52,526 nt of DNA from assembly GCA_944380895.1 (NCBI GenBank), contig CALWJB010000071.1:1-52526 (forward strand). The letters run 5' to 3'. The translations under genes and the position numbers were made by a program. Under the pieces are notes generated by a model that saw nothing but the letters and a program-made list of their open reading frames with translations, was not told where the DNA came from and made no database searches. Below, in pieces: positions 2,570 through 47,149 of the stretch. Each line of letters starts with the position of its first letter. Position 1 is the first letter of the stretch. This DNA comes from an uncultured Clostridia bacterium. GTDB taxonomy: Bacteria; Bacillota; Clostridia; Oscillospirales; Acutalibacteraceae.

Positions 2570-3514
2570 TTAATATACTTTTGCCTCAAGCGCTGCGACT
2601 ACTGCCGAAATGATATCTTTTTCAGTCATTTTGTAAATTTCCTTGAGATATGGCATTTTCCCGACCTGCCCGAATGTATCGCGAATGCCTACCGAACGCA
2701 TCGGTACAGGATAATTTTCACAAATCACCTCAGATACTGCTGAACGAAGTCCACCTACTATATTATGATTTTCCACAGTAACCGCCGCCTTTGTCTTTTG
2801 CACGGACGAAATTATACTTTCTTCATCAATAGGTTTAATAGTATGAATATTTATAATTTCCGCATTAATTCCCATTTCTTCGAGTTTTTTATTCGCCTTT
2901 AAAGTTTCATCAACCATTATCCCCGAACAAAAAATACTTATATCTTCGCCGTGTTTAATTTTTTGGGATTTAAACAGATTAAAAGTCTCGTTTTCATCAA
3001 AAATATCAGGCGTGGATTTTCTAAACATCCTTATATAAACAGGACCTTTATAGTCAACAATTTGAGGAAGTAAATTTTTGAGTTGAGCGTTATCGGTAGG
3101 CTCAAAAATAACAATATTCGGTATACTTCTGAGAACTCCGATATCCTCAAAACTCATGTGAGTTCCACCGTTATATTCCGCACTTATTCCGGGGTCACTG
3201 CCTATAATTTTGACATTTTGCTTTGCGTAACATATAGAAATTGCTATCTGATCACAAATTCTACGCGTTGCAAAAGGAGTAAAACTACAGATAAAAGGAA
3301 TGAACCCATAACTGCTCATTCCCGCAGCGATGCTTGCCATATTTTGCTCGGCAATTCCCACATTTATCGCTCTTTTAGGGAACTTTAAAGAAAAATTTCC
3401 AAATCCGTTAGGTTTCGCAAGATCTGCATTGAGAAGTACTACATTTTCATTTTTGTTCATTAATTTTTCAAGTTCAAGCGCAAACATTTTTCTCATTTCC
3501 ATATCAAATTTCAC
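2570..3514 (-). CDS. transketolase, C-terminal (pyrimidine-binding) subunit
   Basis: 314-aa ORF with GIAEQNM..AAGM and FICSFTPFATRR, typical of the C-terminal half of a split transketolase. It overlaps the upstream N-terminal subunit by 11 nt. Confidence 0.9.
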   Translation of the reverse strand: MKFDMEMRKMFALELEKLMNKNENVVLLNADLAKPNGFGNFSLKFPKRAINVGIAEQNMASIAAGMSSYGFIPFICSFTPFATRRICDQIAISICYAKQNVKIIGSDPGISAEYNGGTHMSFEDIGVLRSIPNIVIFEPTDNAQLKNLLPQIVDYKGPVYIRMFRKSTPDIFDENETFNLFKSQKIKHGEDISIFCSGIMVDETLKANKKLEEMGINAEIINIHTIKPIDEESIISSVQKTKAAVTVENHNIVGGLRSAVSEVICENYPVPMRSVGIRDTFGQVGKMPYLKEIYKMTEKDIISAVVAALEAKVY

Positions 3515-4316
3515 TCCCGAGTTCTTTCATGCTTTCTTCAAATACTTCTTTACTGACAGTCATACTATGATTTGACACTCCGGCTTTCTCCGCGAATTTT
3601 ATACCGTAACCTTTAACCGTATTTAGTATTATCATTACAGGCATTTCAATGTTTTTGGCTGACGTTATGGCATCATCTATTTCTTCACAATCATTGCCAT
3701 TTGTAACGTTTATGACGTTCCAGCCAAAAGCTTTCCACTTATCCCCCAGCGGCTCTATACCGCAAATATCGCTGACCTTTCCATCGAGCTGAAGCTTGTT
3801 GCTGTCCGTAAAGGCTATCAAATTTTTAAGCTTTTGAGCCGAAGCAAACATTGCTGCTTCCCAAATTTGACCTTCTTGACTTTCTCCGTCGCCTATTATC
3901 GTATATATTGTTGCCCCGTCGCTTCTCAGCTGAGACGCCTTGGCAATACCAACAGCACAAGAAAATCCTTGACCGAGTGAACCTGTGGTCATGTCTACCC
4001 CCGGAGTCTTGTTCATATCGCAGTGACTTGGTAAATTTGTACCCGGTTTATTAAGAGTAAGGAGCCAATCTTTTGGGAAATATCCCAAATCGGCAAGCAC
4101 AGCATAAACCGCCGGACCACTATGCCCTTTTGAAACAATTAATCTGTCACGCCCTTCTTTTTGAGGATTCCTAGGGTCTACATTCATATGTTTATAGTAA
4201 AGCGTTACCAAAAGCTCCACAATCGAGAGCGAACCACCTATATGTCCAACACCCAGAGTTCCGATTTCAAGCAGTATATTTCGTCTTATTTCTTTACATT
4301 TCAGATTCATATCCAT
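3504..4316 (-). CDS. transketolase, N-terminal (TPP-binding) subunit
   Basis: 270-aa ORF with GHIGGSLS, SKGHSGPAVYAVL and GDGESQEGQIWEA (thiamine-diphosphate-binding motifs). Confidence 0.9.
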   Translation of the reverse strand: MDMNLKCKEIRRNILLEIGTLGVGHIGGSLSIVELLVTLYYKHMNVDPRNPQKEGRDRLIVSKGHSGPAVYAVLADLGYFPKDWLLTLNKPGTNLPSHCDMNKTPGVDMTTGSLGQGFSCAVGIAKASQLRSDGATIYTIIGDGESQEGQIWEAAMFASAQKLKNLIAFTDSNKLQLDGKVSDICGIEPLGDKWKAFGWNVINVTNGNDCEEIDDAITSAKNIEMPVMIILNTVKGYGIKFAEKAGVSNHSMTVSKEVFEESMKELGSEI

Positions 4317-6590: not shown

Positions 6591-7877
6591 ATGAATCCAA
6601 AACACGTTGTAAGCAAATCTCTCGGCGAAGAGTATTACTATTTGAAACACCCATCAGGGCTTGGAATTTACATTCACCCAAAAAAAGATTATAGTTCAAA
6701 TTATGCAATTTTAGGTACCAATTTTGGCTCTATAAACAACAAATTTAGACTAAAAAACGAAAAAAGTTTTACAGAAGTCCCCGACGGTATTGCTCACTAC
6801 CTGGAACATAAAATTTTTGAAACACCCGAAGGTGATGCATTTAGTCTTTTTGCAAAAACCGGTGCCTCTGCAAATGCCTATACTTCATTTGAAAAAACAG
6901 CATTTTTATTTTCTTGCACAGACAACTTTGAAAAATCACTAAACATACTTCTTGATTTCGTAAGCTCGCCGTATTTTACTCCCGAGAACGTCGAGAAAGA
7001 ACGAGGAATTATCTGTCAGGAAATAAAAATGTATGAAGATAGTCCCGATTGGAAAGTATTTATAAATTTGCTCGGTGCGATGTATAAAAGTCATCCCATA
7101 AACAAAGATATTGCAGGTTCTGTTGAATCGATTTCCAAAATCACTCCCGAACTTCTGTATAAATGCTATGATAGTTTTTATAATCTTCATAACATGACTC
7201 TTTGCATGGTCGGAAATATGGATCCTGATAAAATTTTCACAATTGTTAACAAAAAACTCAATTATTCTATGCCGGTAGAAGTAGAAAGATATTTTCCGGA
7301 CGAACCGCATGATGTAGTAAAAAACTATGTTTCTCAAAACTTCGATATCAAGTCTTCAATGTTTAATTTGGGATTTAAAGAAAATATCTTACCTTTTCAT
7401 CGTGCCACAAACGAAGAACTTGTTTACACAGACATTATGCTCAGTTACTTCTCTTCGCCTTCGTCTGAAATGTATAACAAACTTCTTAATGAAGGACTAA
7501 TAAATACGGCAACTTTTTCAGGCGAATATCTCGAAGGTCCGGGATACGCTTCTGTGATATTCTCGGGAGAATCAAAAGATCCCGAAAAAACTTCAGAAAT
7601 AATCCGCGATTATATGAGAAAAATCCACGAAAACGGTCTTGACAGAGAGGCTTTTGAAAGAGCAAAAAAAGCTGTCTATGGAAGGAGTCTGTCGGTTTTC
7701 AACAACGTGAAAAATATTGCAAATCTTACTTTGGAATTTGATTTCTCCGGTAAAGAACTTTTCGAATATATGTATATACTTCAGGACGCGACTCTTGAAA
7801 AAGTAAACAACAGACTTAAAAAAGAATTGGATCCGAATTATTCTTCGCTTTCCGTGGTAAAACCCTATGAAAAATGA
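6591..7877 (+). CDS. M16-family zinc peptidase (HxxEH present)
   Basis: Contains GIAHYLEHKIFE (the inverted zincin HxxEH motif). Size is 428 aa. It forms a pair with the preceding M16-like gene. Confidence 0.85.
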   Translation: MNPKHVVSKSLGEEYYYLKHPSGLGIYIHPKKDYSSNYAILGTNFGSINNKFRLKNEKSFTEVPDGIAHYLEHKIFETPEGDAFSLFAKTGASANAYTSFEKTAFLFSCTDNFEKSLNILLDFVSSPYFTPENVEKERGIICQEIKMYEDSPDWKVFINLLGAMYKSHPINKDIAGSVESISKITPELLYKCYDSFYNLHNMTLCMVGNMDPDKIFTIVNKKLNYSMPVEVERYFPDEPHDVVKNYVSQNFDIKSSMFNLGFKENILPFHRATNEELVYTDIMLSYFSSPSSEMYNKLLNEGLINTATFSGEYLEGPGYASVIFSGESKDPEKTSEIIRDYMRKIHENGLDREAFERAKKAVYGRSLSVFNNVKNIANLTLEFDFSGKELFEYMYILQDATLEKVNNRLKKELDPNYSSLSVVKPYEK

Positions 7878-8691
7878 AAAAATTTATCATATTGTTTTTC
7901 CGAATTTAAATCTTAGCTTTGAACTGAGCCCTGATATTATTTCTATCGGAAACATATCTATAAAGTGGTATGGTGTGATACTGGCGGCAGCGTTTCTGTG
8001 CGCGTTCTTTTATATTTTTTATAAAAGCAATGATTTTGGCATAAAAACGGAAAATATTTATGACCTGACATTTGCATCGGCTATACCCGCCATATTGGGG
8101 GCAAGACTTTATTATGTTATCTTTTTCCCCGGCGATTTTTATATGAAGCATCCGGAAAAAATTTTTGCAATTTCAGAAGGCGGAATAGCTATATATGGTG
8201 CAATTATCGGCGGATCTATTGGCGCGATAATAGTTTGCAAAATTAAAAAATTACCAATTTTAAAAGTACTAGATATTCTTTCGCTCGGAGTAGTCTTGGG
8301 TCAGGCTATCGGACGCTGGGGAAATTTTGTTAATCAGGAGGCTTTTGGTGAACCCACAGATCTCCCCTGGGGCATGATGAGTGAAAATACTTCATTTCAA
8401 TCCGTACATCCATGTTTTCTTTATGAATCTTTAGGATGCGCAGTAATATTTTTTGTTCTTCATTTTATGATTCCAAAATTGAAAAGCACACCGGGATTAA
8501 TATTTTTATCATACAGCATGCTTTACGGCGCACTAAGATTTGTAGTCGAATCGCTACGCACAGATAGCTTAATCATTCCTAATACAGGCATAAGAATCTC
8601 ACAACTTCTGGCACTTCTGGTTTGTATAATTTCGGCTTCACTGTTGGTAATTATTAAAATGAAACAAACAATCAAAAAACAAAATACATAA
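7867..8691 (+). CDS. lgt: prolipoprotein diacylglyceryl transferase
   Basis: GGIAIYGAIIGG and GRWGNFVNQEAFG motifs in a multi-TM protein of 274 aa. Confidence 0.9.
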   Translation: MKNEKIYHIVFPNLNLSFELSPDIISIGNISIKWYGVILAAAFLCAFFYIFYKSNDFGIKTENIYDLTFASAIPAILGARLYYVIFFPGDFYMKHPEKIFAISEGGIAIYGAIIGGSIGAIIVCKIKKLPILKVLDILSLGVVLGQAIGRWGNFVNQEAFGEPTDLPWGMMSENTSFQSVHPCFLYESLGCAVIFFVLHFMIPKLKSTPGLIFLSYSMLYGALRFVVESLRTDSLIIPNTGIRISQLLALLVCIISASLLVIIKMKQTIKKQNT

Positions 8692-8737
8692 ATATATATT
8701 TTTATTATAATCAAAATAATAAATCATTCATAAAAAT

Positions 8738-8768
8738 CCCTCGACTCATTTTAAATATGAGCCAGGGG
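8738..8768. terminator. hairpin between convergent lgt and transporter genes
   Basis: CCCTCGACTCAT / ATGAGCCAGGGG forms an imperfect stem. On the minus strand it is followed by ATTTTTAT. Confidence 0.45.
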
Positions 8769-8826
8769 CTTTATATTATGTGACGTTATCATTCTGCGTT
8801 AAAATTTTATATAAATATTAGATATT

Positions 8827-10200
8827 TTAGCAAATATTCGTATTTGTTTCTGTGGCTTTTTTATGAGTTACACCAAGGTAAAGTGCAATAAAGAACCATG
8901 CTATGACAAATATATACCCAATAAAGCTACTCAAAATTCTATAACTTGCCATGCCGATTATTTGGTTAATAAGATTTAAAGTAGAACCACCTTGTTTTGA
9001 AATTCTTGCTCCAAAAGTTTCAATCCACGCTTGAGTTTTAGAACGTACATCCGCGCTTGTCGGAATATAAAGCTGTTTTAGTGAAGGTCCGTTTAGTGAG
9101 TAGTGTATTGCTTTGCAAGAAACCATCATCCAGAACAGGAAATTCAAACTGTAGGAATTTAGAGTTCCTAGCAGCGTCAAACTCAAGAAAATACTAAGAG
9201 CAATTCCAAAAAATACAGGTATACATGCGAGTGAAATTTTTAGTCCTAATTTTTTGGTTATCTTATTCACGCCAAGCAACAGGAATATCAAAGCAACTGT
9301 TCCTAAAACTGAATTATAAGTTGATAAATATTGTGTTAATTCCCCGCCTTGATATACTTTTGCAGCCTCGACTTTGAAATTAAAATCAAATATCATTGTT
9401 ATAAATTCGAAAAAAAAGTTAACCGCAAGTATGGCAATTAAATATTTGTGCGAAAATAATAACTTTAAACCTTCGATAAAGCCTGTTTTCTTCCTTTTTT
9501 CAGAAGGCTCGATTTCTTTCGAGGGGGATTGAGATTTCATTAAATCATCGGGAGTCTTTTTGTAAAGATGATTTACAAGCGGCGCAATCAGAAACGTAAA
9601 GATTCCTACTATAGCTATAGAAATCGCGTCGGATTTAACCCCTAAACTAATTGGAAGATTTATAAACAAGAGCGGAGTAACAACGGTTCCAAGCTGACCT
9701 ATCATATATACAAACGGAAATCCTGTTTTTGCAGATTCAGATTTTGTTATATCCGTTGAAAATGACCAAAATAACGCCACGACAATAGAACCAAAACTCT
9801 CGACGATACAATAAAACAAGTATCCCAAAACAGTTGTAAGAATACTTTTTTGAATCATCCCACTCTGATATACCCACACAAACACTGCGTAAGCAAGTGT
9901 TAAAGTTCCGTAAAATACAGGCGGTAAAGTACATAAAAGCTTATGTTTTGGAAAAAAATCTAACAATTTGGTATAAACGGCCACGGCTACACCTATGAAA
10001 ATTACAGAAATAAATTTTGCATATGGTTGAAATTCGGCACCCACAAGTTGAGCAAACAGGGAATCTTTAAGTGGTCTCATCATGTAGTATATTCCAAGTA
10101 TAACTGAGAGTATCGAACCCATTCTGGCAAATTTTCTAAACTCACTCTCTTCGAATTCGCCAAAATTAAATTTACACAGAGACATAAAAAATTTTATCAT
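8827..10200 (-). CDS. NTT/TLC-family (ATP/ADP-translocase-like, Npt1-type) nucleotide transporter homologue
   Basis: 457-aa protein with roughly 12 TM segments. By eye, several blocks align to rickettsial Tlc1. [27 protein letters not shown] matches [51 protein letters not shown] matches [41 protein letters not shown] matches [51 protein letters not shown] matches [36 protein letters not shown]. Confidence 0.7.
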   Translation of the reverse strand: [457 protein letters not shown]

Positions 10201-36771: not shown

Positions 36772-36798
36772 ATCCTCGAGATATTTTATCTCGAGGAT
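36772..36798. terminator. perfect 11-bp hairpin between convergent genes (bidirectional terminator)
   Basis: ATCCTCGAGAT (36772-36782), loop ATTTT, ATCTCGAGGAT (36788-36798), with T/A-rich flanks on both sides. It overlaps the last codons of the minus-strand orphan gene. Confidence 0.7.
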
Positions 36799-37364
36799 TT
36801 ATTTATAAAATTTAAAATTTCTTCCATTTTCATGTTCTCTTTTTTGATCAATAAAATGTGGTACTGTAAAATCAATCTGAGCTGCGGACAAATTCTATAT
36901 TTTAGTGCGTTTTGAATCAGTAAGATAGAAAAATTATTGTAATGAATCATAAATCTTAAGAAAAAAATGTTTACATCGCAAATATTTACACGTTTTCTTA
37001 AAATGCTGTTATAATTACTGCATATTTTTTCAGATTCATTTTTATAATTTTTTATTCCTAAAGCACAATTTTTAAAATCATCACAAAAATTTTCTATCTT
37101 TCGTATGTCTTTGAAAATCTCTTGTCTTTTTTTGACAATTTCCGATACAATAATAAAAATCGGTTTAAAATTAGTACACATAGCCGTATTTTTAGAAATT
37201 TTTTCTGCTGCTTTTTCAAGAATCAACAACTGACTCACAAAATCCCTCGATATACTGCAAGTAGTTTTTAAATCACTTAATTCCGAAAACATATCATTTA
37301 CAATTTTTTCTACGCTAAATATATAGCTTTTATATAAAAAAATTTTACCTCTATTGTTAATCAT
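36786..37364 (-). CDS. hypothetical cytoplasmic helical protein (orphan)
   Basis: 192-aa ORF with an excellent RBS (GGAGG 6 nt before the ATG). There is no signal peptide and no recognisable motif. It is divergent from the 898-aa secreted protein gene. Confidence 0.6.
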   Translation of the reverse strand: MINNRGKIFLYKSYIFSVEKIVNDMFSELSDLKTTCSISRDFVSQLLILEKAAEKISKNTAMCTNFKPIFIIVSEIVKKRQEIFKDIRKIENFCDDFKNCALGIKNYKNESEKICSNYNSILRKRVNICDVNIFFLRFMIHYNNFSILLIQNALKYRICPQLRLILQYHILLIKKENMKMEEILNFINKSSR

Positions 37365-37656
37365 CGTGATTCCTCCGTAATCGTATACAACATAATATTC
37401 CGAAAAAATAAAATTGTAACATTACGAATTTAAGTATATAAAATTTATTGTTTTTTGTATTAAATATCGTGATTTATATATTATAATTATAAAAAATGTT
37501 TTTTAGAAGTTATAAAAATTACGAAAAATATATTTGAAATAATATATAAAAGCAAGTACCAATTTTTTGCATAACCAGTTTATTTTTTTAAGCACTAAAT
37601 TTTAAAATTAATTATGTGAACATAAATTTTAACATTTAAAAATTTACAAAAAATAC

Positions 37657-37684
37657 TTGATAATTTTTATATATAATATATAAT
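37657..37684 (+). promoter_or_regulatory. sigma-A-like promoter upstream of the large secreted-protein gene
   Basis: TTGATA (37657-37662), a 16-nt spacer, then TATAAT (37679-37684), inside a 375-nt extremely AT-rich intergenic region. Confidence 0.4.
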
Positions 37685-37740
37685 AAAATGGCAAAGAATT
37701 TTTACTTTGTAAGCAAATATAAAATTTGGAGGTAATATTT

Positions 37741-40437
37741 ATGAAATTTAAAAGGTCCCTGGCATCCGCATTAAGTACAGCACTTTTCATCCCATACGCA
37801 TTTAGTCCATGCTCAGCTATAGCCGATGATGAATCTGCAAAATCTAAAACATCCGGTAATACGTGTGAGTCTGCTAAAAATCCGGGTAACGCTTCACCAC
37901 TTATGGATTTTACTTTTAATGGAGAAAAAATTCAAAGTAATGCCGACACAAGCAAAATTAAACTGGATTTATTTGAAGGTGATAACTTAAACATTGCTTT
38001 GATGCATGGGCTCGAGTTTATTATCGGAGAAAACTCTTCACCGTACATAGATGATAAAAAATTAATTGTAGGAGGCATTCGTGCTAACCGATCTATCTGT
38101 GAGAGTTTGAATAGTATAGTAGATTACGTAAAAGCAAAAAAAGAAAATGATAATGATAAAAATTTAGAAATTTTGAAAAAACTCCACGCACTCGAATCAA
38201 TGATGAAACACGATAAAAATATACCTGACGATAATGTTGCTCTTGGATTTATATCAGCTATGAAATCCGCGTATCAAGCAGTTATTTCTCGCTCGGTAGC
38301 AATAAGTGTACTCGAAGATAACAGAGAAAAAATAGAATCTAAAATGAGTTCGCAGTCATACTACGCGGATTCCGAACTATCTGCCGGTATTCCGAGCGAA
38401 GGTTTTAACATGAGTCTTTCTGCAGGTCTTTCCACCAACCAGCAATCAACAGAAACTTCATTTTATAAAATCGACAATTCCGGAAATTTAGGCCTGAGTA
38501 TCGGTGCCGGATTGACTCATTATTTATCTTTAAACGCAGCATGCTCATTTGAAATAACAAATTCGCTTATTTTTTATTCTTTAGAAGAGTTTTTAGATGC
38601 CGGCATGGATAAAGGAAATATTTCGTTTTTAAAATTAAAAGACGATGACCTAAAAAAAGTGATATCTTCGAGGAAAAAAATGCAGGACGATGAAACTGCC
38701 ATTATGATCAAACTTAAGACATCAATAGAACCATTTTTAAAATCTGCGAATATTGTTCCTCAAAACTTAACATTCAAAATACCCGAACCTACATGTTTGA
38801 GTATCCCGGAAAAAAGCAATAAATTTAGCATAAATTCCAAACTGTCGGCAGAGACAAATTGTCTGCTGGCAGCCGGAATGACCGTCTCGAAAGAAACCTC
38901 CTTTACAAAAATCAAGTCATATCATCCATATCTTGAATTAGTAGATAAAAATTTTTTAATAACTAATTACTGCACCGATATCGACGACTTGATTACATAC
39001 TTAAAAATTTCAGATACATCCAAATACAAAGAAATAAAAAAATTTTTTTCGTGTGAGCTGCCAAATGCGAATATGGCAGAAATATTCTCCATTATAATTG
39101 CAAATTTAATAGGTGATCTAAAAAGGTATAATGCAGCACTGACAATTATAGCGGATGATACATCCGGCAGCAGACACAAAAGTGATGCTCGAAATGTCAA
39201 AAAATACATAGAAAGCAATTGGGTAGGTACCAGCTTTTCGTCAAAATCTAAGCACGGCAGGAAAACCATGCTAAAAATTGCCATAGCTCTGGGAGCATAT
39301 TTGCGCGCTTTATATCCATCGGACGATAATAACGAATTATTTTCATCACTTTATAATGAAGTAGAAAATCTTTCGCTGTTTCAAAAATTTAATAGCAAGC
39401 TTTTTTTTGAAACCAAGCAAGGGTTTAATACTTCAATAACATCAAACAAAATCAGCGTAACGGGCACAACATATCTGGACATACCTTTTGTAGGGAGAAC
39501 TAATCTGACTGTTTCGCGTTCGGATACAAAAAGTCCTCTATATACGGATAACTGTCAGGATATTACCGTTACAACCCAATTGCCAATAATAAATGGCAAA
39601 TATTATGGCTCTGACACTTTAAGAGAAAAGCTGAGGAATTTAATCAGTATAATTTCAAAAACGAACGATGCTGCTGCCCTTACGCTGGCAGATTCTTTGA
39701 GTTTGATAGAAAAAGAATTCGATAACACTGTATCAAGCTACGGAATAGAAAAAACACTGTATGTTCCCAAAGTGTTTTCAATAATAAATTATGTTAATTT
39801 ACATTTTTATTTTACTAAAGTTCCAAAAACTGAAAATCCAAATGAATTAATTCCACTTCCTGACAATAATTTGATTGAAAAAGATAAGGACTCAGTCATA
39901 TTAAAACTCACCAAAAGAATTGACAGCAGAAATACAGATCTCAAAATCATATCTGATGCCGTTGATATCAAGGCATCGAACAAAGTTGGAAAAGCTTCTT
40001 CAAAAATAGGCACAGACAGCCTTATGTTCATTACAAAAAAATTTAACGCGCTCGAATTGAGTGAAAATTTAGCTGCTTCCGCCAATCTTTGGAACAAATT
40101 TAAACAAGGACAAAAAAATTCTCTGGAAAAATTATTTATTAATATGACAAACGACGATTCAAATGCAAAATATGAACTCCAAAACATTTATTCGCTAATT
40201 ATCAAAAACATAAGATCTAAGCACGAAATCGGCAGCACTGCACAGTCTTCTTTGATAACCGCAACTGAACATATATTTCGCAATTTTCTTGTGGCTTGTG
40301 AAAAACTGAAAGATTCCGAAAGTAGTGACGCGTCGGACCAATCATACGAAACCGCAAGTAATTTACTGGATTCTATACTCAAACTAAATTATGAGTTTGT
40401 CTGGTATCCTGCACTGGTTGCGGCAAACAGTAAGTAA
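37741..40437 (+). CDS. large (898 aa) secreted protein of unknown function
   Basis: The ATG at 37741 lies 8 nt after GGAGG; the track ORF begins at the TTG at 37726. The Sec signal peptide reads MKFKRSLASALSTALFIPYAFSPCSA|IADDE. I found no enzyme motif. A Gly/Ser-rich alternating segment lies at 38371-38580. A hairpin terminator follows. Confidence 0.8.
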   Translation: MKFKRSLASALSTALFIPYAFSPCSAIADDESAKSKTSGNTCESAKNPGNASPLMDFTFNGEKIQSNADTSKIKLDLFEGDNLNIALMHGLEFIIGENSSPYIDDKKLIVGGIRANRSICESLNSIVDYVKAKKENDNDKNLEILKKLHALESMMKHDKNIPDDNVALGFISAMKSAYQAVISRSVAISVLEDNREKIESKMSSQSYYADSELSAGIPSEGFNMSLSAGLSTNQQSTETSFYKIDNSGNLGLSIGAGLTHYLSLNAACSFEITNSLIFYSLEEFLDAGMDKGNISFLKLKDDDLKKVISSRKKMQDDETAIMIKLKTSIEPFLKSANIVPQNLTFKIPEPTCLSIPEKSNKFSINSKLSAETNCLLAAGMTVSKETSFTKIKSYHPYLELVDKNFLITNYCTDIDDLITYLKISDTSKYKEIKKFFSCELPNANMAEIFSIIIANLIGDLKRYNAALTIIADDTSGSRHKSDARNVKKYIESNWVGTSFSSKSKHGRKTMLKIAIALGAYLRALYPSDDNNELFSSLYNEVENLSLFQKFNSKLFFETKQGFNTSITSNKISVTGTTYLDIPFVGRTNLTVSRSDTKSPLYTDNCQDITVTTQLPIINGKYYGSDTLREKLRNLISIISKTNDAAALTLADSLSLIEKEFDNTVSSYGIEKTLYVPKVFSIINYVNLHFYFTKVPKTENPNELIPLPDNNLIEKDKDSVILKLTKRIDSRNTDLKIISDAVDIKASNKVGKASSKIGTDSLMFITKKFNALELSENLAASANLWNKFKQGQKNSLEKLFINMTNDDSNAKYELQNIYSLIIKNIRSKHEIGSTAQSSLITATEHIFRNFLVACEKLKDSESSDASDQSYETASNLLDSILKLNYEFVWYPALVAANSK

Positions 40438-40475
40438 TTTTCAAATGACTAAATTCTCTATATTAATAAAATATT

Positions 40476-40505
40476 TCCTCGGCCTAAGGTCGGGGATTTT
40501 GTTTT
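40476..40505 (+). terminator. rho-independent terminator
   Basis: TCCTCGGCC / GGTCGGGGA forms a 9-bp stem with two G-U pairs and a TAA loop, followed by TTTTGTTTT. Confidence 0.65.
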
Positions 40506-40688
40506 ATATAATACATCCGATTTTAAATATTAGAAATAAAAAAATAATAAAATCAACGAATATTAAAGCGCAAATACATACCAAATCATTATGTGGTAAT
40601 TAATCTGGTAAAAATTTTTTAACTGCCGGATGCACAGTCTCTAAAATTTATGCATAATCTGTTAAAAACTATGTTCGAGGTTAAGAAT

Positions 40689-40962: not shown

Positions 40963-42459
40963 TTGGAGATGAGCTATGCTTTGAATATTATAAAAAACTC
41001 CGTAAAAAAAATAAAAAATTTTAAAATTAAAAAAATTAGAAATCGCAAAATACAAAAAATTTCAGCTCATATAGCAATAGCAGGAAATCCGAATGTTGGA
41101 AAAAGTACGGTTTTCAACGCTCTTACAGGACTTAATCAGCATACGGGAAACTGGCCCGGAAAAACGGTTGAATGTACTGAAGGGGAATATACTTATAACG
41201 AAAAATTTTTCAAAATTACAGATATCCCGGGCACATACTCACTTATGCCGAATTCTCCGGAAGAAGAAATTGCAAGAGATTATATTTGCTTTTCGAATCC
41301 AGACGTTATAATAGTCGTTTTGGACGCCACGTGCCTTGAAAGAAATCTTAATTTAGCATTGCAAATTTTAGAAATAACACAAAACGTCGTAATTTGCGTA
41401 AATCTCATCGACGAGGCAAAAAAGAAAAAAATATATATCGATCTTGACGAACTTTCCATGCAACTTGGCGGAGTGCCTGTAGTATACAGCAATGCGCGAA
41501 AAAAATTCGGAATCAACAATCTAATGAAAGCGGTGGATGACGTCGCTACAAAAAAGAAAAAAATATTTTATGTTAAAAATGACGACTATCCCGAAATTTT
41601 AAAAAATTCCGTGAATACAATTTCAAAAACTATATCAAATTTTATTCCCAAACATATGAACGAAAAATGGTTGGCAGAAAAAATTTTGGAAAATAATGAA
41701 ATTATAAAAAATTTCATACCAAAAAACATCGGCTACAATCTTCTTCAAGATGAAAAAATTATTGGTATCATAACCTCCGAACAAAAAAAATTATGTGAAG
41801 AAGGATTTGATGGCAAACGAATAAGAGAAATTTTTGCAAATAGTATTATTAAAAAATCTGAAAAAATATATAATCTATGCGTTTATGTAGAGAACAAAAA
41901 TTACGACAAAAAAGACCGCATCATAGATAATATTCTTACCTCAAAACTCACAGGCATACCTATAATGATTGCACTTTTAACTTTGATTTTTTGGATAACT
42001 TTAGTCGGAGCAAATTATCCATCACAGCTGCTTTCAAATGCTCTTTTTTGGATTCAAGACAGACTTACAGAATTTTGTATAAATGTAAATTGCCCTTGGT
42101 GGATTCACGGAATTTTTGTCGAAGGAATATACAGAACTCTTGCATGGGTAGTTTCGGTAATGCTGCCTCCTATGGCAATATTTTTCCCTCTTTTCACTTT
42201 CTTGGAAGACACCGGCTATTTACCCAGAATCGCATTTAATCTCGATAATGCATTTCGAAAGTGTGGCGCTCACGGTAAACAGGCTCTCACAACTTGCATG
42301 GGGTTTGGATGCAACGCTTGTGGAGTTATCGGATGCAGAATTATAGATTCGCCGCGTGAAAAATTAATTGCAATTCTTACAAATAATTTTGTTCCATGCA
42401 ACGGTCGTTTACCGCAATTTAAAATGTCAAAAAATTATTCGAATTCTTCGATTAAATGA
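40963..42459 (+). CDS. feoB: ferrous iron transporter FeoB, apparently truncated at the C-terminus (possible pseudogene)
   Basis: G-domain IAIAGNPNVGKSTVFNALTG...DIPGTYSL...NLID, then the first membrane (gate) region up to ...LIAILTNNFVPCNGR. From about 42409 the sequence turns into an unrelated tail (LPQFKMSKNYSNSSIK*). The start is ambiguous (TTG 40963, ATG 40969 or TTG 40981). Confidence 0.8.
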   Translation: MEMSYALNIIKNSVKKIKNFKIKKIRNRKIQKISAHIAIAGNPNVGKSTVFNALTGLNQHTGNWPGKTVECTEGEYTYNEKFFKITDIPGTYSLMPNSPEEEIARDYICFSNPDVIIVVLDATCLERNLNLALQILEITQNVVICVNLIDEAKKKKIYIDLDELSMQLGGVPVVYSNARKKFGINNLMKAVDDVATKKKKIFYVKNDDYPEILKNSVNTISKTISNFIPKHMNEKWLAEKILENNEIIKNFIPKNIGYNLLQDEKIIGIITSEQKKLCEEGFDGKRIREIFANSIIKKSEKIYNLCVYVENKNYDKKDRIIDNILTSKLTGIPIMIALLTLIFWITLVGANYPSQLLSNALFWIQDRLTEFCINVNCPWWIHGIFVEGIYRTLAWVVSVMLPPMAIFFPLFTFLEDTGYLPRIAFNLDNAFRKCGAHGKQALTTCMGFGCNACGVIGCRIIDSPREKLIAILTNNFVPCNGRLPQFKMSKNYSNSSIK

Positions 42460-46961: not shown

Positions 46962-47149
46962 AAAAATATTAAAATGTATTTACAAACGATTTATTATATG
47001 ATATAGTACACATTGTGATATGATCATGTCGGTATATTTTTGATTATTGAAGGAGATATATATGAAATTAAATCTAAAATTAACAAGTTTGCTTTTAGGT
47101 ACATGCGTACTCGCTGGACCAAGCGCCAGTGCAATGGATCCACATGACC
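46962..47149 (+). repeat. 5' module, copy 1 (promoter + RBS + signal-peptide codons), paralogous to 48298-48485
   Basis: My hand alignment is 188 nt against 188 nt with no indels and roughly a dozen mismatches. It contains TTTACA-17 nt-TATAGT (46979-47007), GGAG and the ATG at 47062. Confidence 0.9.

Follow-up and report, generated by a model that had tools for sequence, protein, structure and literature searches.

An 898-residue secreted protein of an uncultured Clostridia bacterium as a candidate single-chain membrane β-barrel

Introduction

This report concerns a single large gene in a stretch of DNA from an uncultured Clostridia bacterium of the Acutalibacteraceae (GenBank assembly GCA_944380895.1, contig CALWJB010000071.1, positions 1 to 52,526 of the forward strand); the whole stretch of 52,526 nucleotides is referred to below as the window. 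The gene (37741-40437, plus strand) encodes an exported protein of 898 residues, which an earlier reading made from the letters without database searches (the sequence-only reading) had described as an orphan and a candidate toxin or adhesin. The bacterium that makes it seems to be a monoderm Clostridium, with a wall only, from a clade of putative intracellular energy parasites. A deep family alignment, a confident structural model and the pattern of residues along the predicted strands together point, tentatively, to a single-chain membrane β-barrel of twelve strands, which would act as a channel or pore beneath a helical cap.

The gene and its export signal

The coding sequence runs from an ATG at 37741 to a stop codon ending at 40437 (plus strand, as are all features of the gene given below), specifies a protein of about 97 kDa and has full-length homologs at 36-99% identity. 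It is the largest open reading frame of the window, where the runner-up has 591 residues, and the protein has no paralog within the window. The longest alternative frame opens at a TTG at 37726 and would give 903 residues. The ATG is the better start, because a GGAGG ribosome-binding site (37728-37732) lies 8 nt before it and the block comprising this site and the ATG is invariant in five orthologous loci, all of which carry GGAGGTAAT...ATGAAA while their proteins are only 54-70% identical.

The spacer upstream of the gene (37365-37740) is 376 nt long, with a guanine-cytosine (GC) content of 16.8%. Its best promoter-like site is of the sigma-70 type, with a -35 element TTGATA and a -10 element TATAAT separated by 16 nt (37657-37684; 11 of 12 matches). 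Besides the ribosome-binding site, upstream conservation among the five orthologous loci is confined to the promoter hexamers (a TTGAC-type -35 and a TAyAAT -10), and the sequence between the two is not conserved. The promoter and the strong ribosome-binding site argue for vegetative expression. Beginning 38 nt past the stop codon, a hairpin and T-run resembling an intrinsic terminator occupy 40476-40496; the hairpin has 9 pairs, 6 of them G-C, and with the TTTTGTTTTA that follows it the element extends over 40476-40506. The sequence-only reading had described the gene as the largest of the window, with its own promoter in an AT-rich intergenic region and its own terminator, and these descriptions hold. 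GC content at third codon positions is 0.305, similar to that of the adjacent genes, so composition gives no support to a recent horizontal transfer.

Residues 1-26 (37741-37818) are laid out like a signal peptide, with MKFKR as the n-region, a hydrophobic stretch, and a c-region ending in C-S-A before an isoleucine; cleavage would be expected after C-S-A. Orthologs have A-F-A or a similar sequence at this point, with small residues at -3 and -1. A signal-like N-terminal segment is present in 61 of the 69 full-length family members, and none of the 69 has a transmembrane helix beyond the N-terminus. The Sec signal claimed for the protein earlier is thus confirmed at the level of its layout and of its recurrence among relatives. 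A lipoprotein reading of the cysteine near the end of the signal was rejected, as the residues preceding it (P, T, I, V, M) are unlike a lipobox and the cysteine is absent from some orthologs.

The protein has no significant match in Pfam, NCBIfam, PHROGs or PDB sequences, nor in a PDB profile search, and no known domains were found in 38 diverse relatives that were scanned or in 8 long distant members. It contains no HExxH, LPxTG or Walker A motif and no SLH, CWB2, LysM, choline-binding or sortase signal. The lack of any assignable domain or motif had been noted from the letters, and the absences listed then were correct.

Predicted structure

An AlphaFold2 model computed from a 107-sequence family alignment is confident (mean predicted local distance difference test score, pLDDT, 88; predicted template modelling score, pTM, 0.84), with only the first 48 residues disordered. 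A first model from 16 close sequences was poor (pLDDT 69, pTM 0.46), and its non-significant Foldseek matches were set aside. The deeper model contains twelve long antiparallel strands of 10-20 residues each (205-219, 222-237, 240-258, 262-278, 357-366, 381-395, 562-581, 585-597, 605-617, 683-694, 718-737 and 741-756), many of them joined by tight turns, and about 530 helical residues that interrupt or cap them. In a simple up-and-down topology, both termini, residues 56-204, the inserts 279-356 and 396-561 and the C-terminal domain 757-898 all lie on one side of the strands, leaving the opposite side with no more than short turns, a single short helix and a helical hairpin (618-682).

From the N-terminus, the signal segment is followed by a variable, probably disordered linker (residues 27-55; 37819-37905), with pLDDT below 50 for residues 1-48 and no conservation in the alignment. 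The N-terminal helical domain (56-204; 37906-38352) consists of helices 82-95, 106-131, 137-157 and 166-204, modelled at pLDDT 85-98. Strands 1-4 (205-278; 38353-38574) include a Gly/Ser-rich segment, have 15-19 residues each with turns of 2-3 residues, are modelled at pLDDT 69-94 and show the strongest dyad amphipathicity of the protein. Helical insert 1 (279-356; 38575-38808), with a near-invariant FYSLEEFLD motif and R311/E318, leads to strands 5-6 (357-395; 38809-38925), which have a short helix in their connecting loop. Helical insert 2 (396-561; 38926-39423) holds the invariant Y463, R507 and L544, and strands 7-9 (562-617; 39424-39591) end at the invariant P615. The amphipathic helical hairpin on the tight-turn side (618-682; 39592-39786; helices 624-639 and 644-666) is 25-34% charged and is the least conserved part of the protein, its mean column entropy of 2.89 exceeding that of every other region. 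Strands 10-12 (683-756; 39787-40008) contain a conserved L706-P707 loop, and the C-terminal helical domain (757-898; 40009-40434), modelled at pLDDT 91-98 over most of its length, carries an N808...YELQ motif and C853.

Conserved positions are scattered along the chain, among them D76, N82, F170, R184 and E199 in the N-terminal helical domain, then S280, E282, D286, R311, E318, Y463, K487, E491, R507, P615, L706-P707, E812-L813-Q814 and C853. Four of these (E812, L813, Q814 and C853) are each shared by at least 90% of sequences. Among polar residues, conservation falls mostly on R, E, K and D, with some Ser, Asn, Gln and Tyr, in or beside helices. A catalytic reading was rejected, because no His is conserved across the family and no catalytic motif could be recognised. 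An internal duplication was likewise rejected, since hhalign comparisons of nine segments and of the two halves reached a best probability of 12%.

Foldseek comparison of the model with the PDB returned outer-membrane β-barrels for every one of the top 50 matches, and the top matches are all closed barrels. The best was FadL (E 4.3e-4, probability 0.93), with five FadL chains below E 1e-3, followed by OprB, the 12-strand autotransporter barrels of EstA and NalP, CdiB, porins and BamA. Weak matches to maturation proteins of single-stranded RNA phages, found among viral structures, were rejected. On the basis of the model it is likely, though not proven, that the twelve strands close into a barrel.

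An amphipathic belt at one end of the strands

The pattern of residues along the strands was analysed using the strand boundaries of the model and 38 diverse sequences. In every strand a hydrophobic face alternates with a small or polar face. Over the first 10 residues from the tight-turn end, one face has a Kyte-Doolittle hydropathy of +1.9 and is 72% hydrophobic and 7% charged, and the other has a hydropathy of -1.45, is 13% hydrophobic and 24% charged, and is rich in G, S, T and N; from residue 10 onward the alternation is lost. The strong dyad stands at the end expected for an alternating up-down meander with a single belt in 10 of the 10 informative strands (P about 0.001). Ten residues of a tilted strand span, by our own estimate, about 25 Å, which is close to the thickness of the hydrophobic part of a membrane. 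The hairpin 618-682, being charged and the least conserved region, fits an exposed loop and not a buried hydrophobic plug.

These observations recast one part of the sequence-only reading. Its Gly/Ser-rich segment is real, covers residues 211-280 exactly where it was placed, and alternates hydrophobic with small or polar residues. The segment had been likened to the membrane-inserting hairpins of pore-forming toxins; residues 205-278 are indeed predicted to form amphipathic β-hairpins (four strands), but they are not the isolated stem of an oligomeric toxin, as they make up one third of a single-chain 12-strand meander over residues 205-756.

The same belt bears on whether the protein enters a membrane at all. 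It could be a soluble barrel, secreted or wall-associated, with its hydrophobic face turned inward, that binds lipids or other hydrophobic ligands or serves as a scaffold or adhesin. A producer with neither an outer membrane nor the barrel assembly machinery (BAM) would suit such a protein, as would a confident, compact monomer model (pTM 0.84), low template modelling (TM) scores against true membrane barrels and helices that are all of the ordinary soluble amphipathic type. We nevertheless consider this rather unlikely. In each of the twelve strands the dyad is limited to a belt of 10 residues at one end and does not run over the whole sheet, and the opposite face is rich in G, S, T and N in the manner of barrel lumens. 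The only candidate for filling a cavity is the hairpin 618-682, which is too charged and too variable to look like a core, and none of the top 50 Foldseek matches is a soluble β-protein.

Comparison with known systems

Monomeric outer-membrane barrels such as FadL, NalP and EstA provide the closest likeness. Like the model, they carry a Sec signal and consist of long antiparallel up-down strands (twelve in NalP and EstA) with tight turns on one side; one face of the strands forms a hydrophobic belt about 10 residues deep, and the other is polar and rich in Gly and Ser. They are also the best and only significant Foldseek matches of the model. Tsx, a 12-strand nucleoside channel, is a further monomeric outer-membrane barrel. 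The model also has the even number of amphipathic strands in a next-neighbour meander, here twelve, that characterises BAM-assembled barrels. The differences are nonetheless considerable. There is no sequence relationship (no Pfam or NCBIfam match for the protein or 38 relatives, and no PDB profile match), four helical inserts break up the barrel and a helical domain of about 140 residues follows it, and there is no C-terminal aromatic β-signal, the last strand ending at residue 756 and the protein at ...LVAANSK. In addition, the producer appears to have no outer membrane.

A second likeness is to TolC-type factors, in which a barrel with short outer turns is joined to a large helical domain on the side of both termini; TolC and ST50 also headed the Foldseek matches of the first, shallow model, without reaching significance. 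TolC, however, is a trimer with 4 strands per chain and very long coiled helices, whereas the present protein has 12 strands in one chain and ordinary helical bundles, with neither a match to the OEP family of Pfam nor internal repeats detectable by hhalign. Type V autotransporters match in strand count, but here the barrel is split by four inserts, is not C-terminal and has no match to the Autotransporter family of Pfam.

β-barrel pore-forming toxins such as α-haemolysin and aerolysin share secretion by Gram-positive bacteria, a cap-plus-stem shape and amphipathic hairpins rich in Ser, Thr and Gly. In these toxins each protomer supplies one or two hairpins and oligomerisation is required, whereas one chain of the present family holds the equivalent of six, and neither the protein nor its relatives match the Leukocidin, Aerolysin/ETX-MTX2, CDC or MACPF families. 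It is conceivable that the protein is an oligomeric cytolysin secreted as a soluble monomer, in which residues 205-278, and perhaps other hairpins, refold and join those of other protomers in a lytic pore. The Ser/Gly/Thr-rich amphipathic hairpins with short tips agree with this, as do the strong promoter and the solitary position of a gene whose product is secreted, and AlphaFold2 models of toxins can mix conformational states. This is nevertheless improbable, given that no pore-forming-toxin family is matched in Pfam or PDB sequences, that one chain already has the twelve strands needed for a barrel of its own, and that named family members occur only in lineages dependent on a live host, for which a lytic toxin would be costly.

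A functional analogy lies outside bacteria. GRA17 and GRA23 of Toxoplasma and EXP2 of Plasmodium are parasite-made pores in the host-derived vacuole membrane; they are eukaryotic, helical and oligomeric, and any likeness would be to the proposed job only, that of making an enclosing host membrane permeable to small solutes, with no homology implied. Judged from the model, the protein would work most like a monomeric outer-membrane barrel or a one-chain, TolC-like cap and barrel. What is new is an undescribed family with an unexpected monoderm host and an unusual spread across phyla among lineages of the symbiont type.

A family spread across symbiont-type lineages

The description of the protein as an orphan does not hold. 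It has 16 close homologs (36-99% identity, all of about 870-940 residues), and a profile of these, searched against 1.84 billion representative proteins, recovered 108 clusters (50% identity), of which 70 have E values under 1e-30; the majority match over their full length and have 860-1100 residues, and none is characterised. A profile search of a 5.8-billion-protein set returned nothing beyond 15 close homologs. Among species-representative genomes the family occupies 16 loci, all in uncultured gut metagenome-assembled genomes (MAGs) labelled Clostridia, Eubacteriales, Ruminococcaceae or Acutalibacteraceae and derived from humans (Hadza, UMGS, HGM and MGYG collections), goat intestine and other samples.

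Organism names were looked up for 30 clusters. Distant members with such a name belong to the Holosporales/Holosporaceae (7), the Puniceicoccales (6) and unclassified Alphaproteobacteria (2). The sole other name is that of a Photobacterium hypothetical protein with a weak match confined to the C-terminus (E 1.4e-5). No Holospora species name is found among these clusters. The 89-kDa periplasmic invasion protein of Holospora obtusa may be related to the 898-residue protein, a link offered only as a lead. A neighbour-joining tree, rough and lacking support values, places the Clostridia copies in a single derived group and the named Puniceicoccales copies with one another, and distributes the alphaproteobacterial copies over several deep branches. 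This pattern mirrors the origin published for the ATP/ADP translocase of the Acutalibacteraceae "small genome clade", which was inferred to have come possibly from Alphaproteobacteria (Takahashi et al., 2023; PMC10579323). One carrier of the family, MGYG-HGUT-04496 (MGYG000004496; locus L013), is itself listed in that clade (Takahashi et al., 2023; PMC10579323).

The Holosporales are obligate associates of eukaryotes, mostly protists, and termite guts are known to harbour a verrucomicrobial cluster of endosymbionts of protists; the Puniceicoccales MAGs that carry the family could possibly belong to that cluster. So far, every lineage in which the family has been seen has gut protists as its actual or probable home. 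The same study reported three hypothetical orthogroups (OG0003398, OG0004343 and OG0005234) whose gain was placed, with that of the ATP/ADP translocase, at the base of the clade; they are present in only 30-70% of its genomes, had no domain that could be found and were not confidently modelled by AlphaFold2 at the time (Takahashi et al., 2023; PMC10579323). The family described here may be one of these, which is offered as a lead only.

A further group of proteins (P0111-P0119, e.g., Photobacterium WP_064609296.1) matches weakly (E 1e-5 to 5e-4) over the C-terminal helical domain only, at about residues 650-880. These proteins have about 870-1100 residues and no signal peptide. Judged from such sequence matches, the C-terminal helical domain may be a separately mobile module.

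Host genome and gene neighbourhood

The window has a GC content of 35%. It encodes a TLC/NTT-type nucleotide transporter (8827-10200, minus strand) that shares 55% identity with the ATP/ADP translocase of Ca. Improbicoccus pseudotrichonymphae, 56% with the transporter of the IJI84 MAG, which also encodes a family member (P0016), and 49% with Holosporales transporters. These identities place the host genome in or near the small genome clade of the Acutalibacteraceae. At 48380-49657 and 47047-47934 (both plus strand) lie a eukaryote-type protein-tyrosine phosphatase (Y_phosphatase, E 1.7e-31) and its 295-residue neighbour, the latter with no Pfam match. Members of the clade are putative obligate intracellular energy parasites of gut protists, with genomes of 0.9-1.4 Mb and 30-39% GC, an ATP/ADP translocase, and eukaryote-like proteins with Sec signals that include protein-tyrosine phosphatases; verified members have a Gram-positive type wall, form endospores and are enclosed by a host membrane (Takahashi et al., 2023; PMC10579323). 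In its GC content, phosphatase and transporter the window agrees with that description. That the producer has no outer membrane is judged from the sortase, Spo0A, SpoIVA and SpoIIM carried by related contigs and from the Gram-positive type wall described for the clade, the part of its own genome covered being the 52 kb of the window. The host-interaction theme suggested by the sequence-only reading is therefore well founded, in a genome in or near a clade of energy parasites and a family whose named members come from clade relatives, Holosporales, other Alphaproteobacteria and Puniceicoccales.

The gene always stands alone, and its neighbours differ between lineages. One Holosporales copy (P0045, locus L007) lies between a gene with a Myb DNA-binding domain (2994-3563) and an LRR_5 gene (6802-9111). 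PTPc, Myb and LRR_5 are among the eukaryote-like domains listed for the Clostridia clade (PMC10579323). The immediate surroundings in the window (37365-37740 and 40438-40650) are plastic in comparison with those of four relatives (L001, L026, L027 and L028), which have one or two DUF4352 genes upstream and, downstream, an ankyrin-repeat gene, a 697-residue unknown gene or a GH25 lysin; all of these are absent from the window. On the other side of the upstream spacer lies a divergent 192-residue open reading frame (36786-37364, minus strand; 24% GC) with no Pfam or PHROGs match, and a gene of 188-192 residues, also with no Pfam match, has the same position and strand beside ireB in L001, L026 and L028. 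Further downstream, FeoB (40963-42459, plus strand) has 498 residues and stops just past the first Gate domain, with no continuation in any frame; from its sequence it looks like a 3'-truncated, decaying gene, consistent with genome reduction.

That the protein is instead a structural part of the bacterium's own envelope or spore, S-layer-like or coat-associated and with no role at a host membrane, would suit the size and export of the protein, expression signals strong enough to suggest that it is abundant, an endospore-forming clade and the wall and polysaccharide functions encoded nearby, but it is very unlikely in view of a promoter that is apparently of the housekeeping and not the sporulation-sigma type, the occurrence of the family in the non-sporulating diderm Holosporales and Puniceicoccales, a gene neighbourhood that is not conserved and the absence of the wall-anchoring signals (SLH, CWB2, LysM, choline-binding, sortase) sought above.

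A possible channel in the host-derived membrane

Taken together, the predicted fold and its belt suggest, as a possibility that we favour tentatively, a single-chain 12-strand membrane β-barrel that acts as a channel or pore under a helical cap. The steps that follow, including membrane insertion, the target membrane and the solute that passes, are put forward as a proposal. The protein would be exported by the Sec system in a cap-on-stem shape, its tight-turn end bearing the hydrophobic belt of about 10 residues. The barrel would then insert into the host-derived membrane that surrounds the bacterium, which is the most likely target because the producer appears to be a monoderm and verified members of the clade live inside a host membrane. 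There, ATP or other host solutes would pass through the channel and so come within reach of the ATP/ADP translocase of the bacterium. Alternatively, it might help to breach the food vacuole after ingestion. In diderm members it would be an unusual outer-membrane protein.

Several points weigh against this proposal. The Foldseek superpositions are poor (TM-scores 0.12-0.31, root-mean-square deviations 15-27 Å), and the matches therefore reflect mostly the local geometry of the strands, although the low scores can be attributed to the helical inserts, which break the superposition; the structural comparison that the sequence-only reading had proposed thus gave a confident fold and outer-membrane barrel matches, yet no good superposition. 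Both the closure of strand 12 onto strand 1 and the outward facing of the hydrophobic face are suppositions, and an analysis of strand-pair covariation by mutual information with average product correction (MI-APC) failed to recover even obvious control hairpins and so has no bearing on closure. Monoderms lack BAM machinery, and a preformed hydrophobic belt needs some means of staying soluble after export. Insertion would also require the 65-residue hairpin to pass through the target membrane. No conserved partner gene or operon was found across the lineages compared, and none of the three microscopically verified endosymbionts is among the named matches, so the 898-residue protein may not be essential inside a host. 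Its expression, and its localisation at a host membrane, are predictions.

Of the two functions proposed earlier, that of an adhesin has no support, the protein having no repeats and no anchor. A toxin is one possible use of a barrel, but a channel in the enclosing membrane fits the taxonomic distribution at least as well. A bolder extension, which we regard as doubtful, is that a family of barrel channels has been passed horizontally among unrelated intracellular symbionts of gut protists (Holosporales, Verrucomicrobia and Acutalibacteraceae), with the Clostridia inserting the barrel without BAM and using the vacuole as their outer membrane, so that ATP and metabolites of the host could arrive at the translocase.

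Significance

We know of no route by which ATP crosses the enclosing membrane of the recently discovered Gram-positive parasites of gut protists. Bacteria that steal host ATP need it to pass whatever membrane surrounds them, and a putative secreted barrel of the membrane type, in a genome that also encodes a translocase, is a concrete candidate. If the proposal is correct, the protein would be, to our knowledge, the first single-chain membrane β-barrel from a bacterium without an outer membrane. The analysis also provides a functional lead for a family that has no Pfam or NCBIfam model, and the family could mark hidden intracellular lifestyles among the MAGs of human and ruminant guts.

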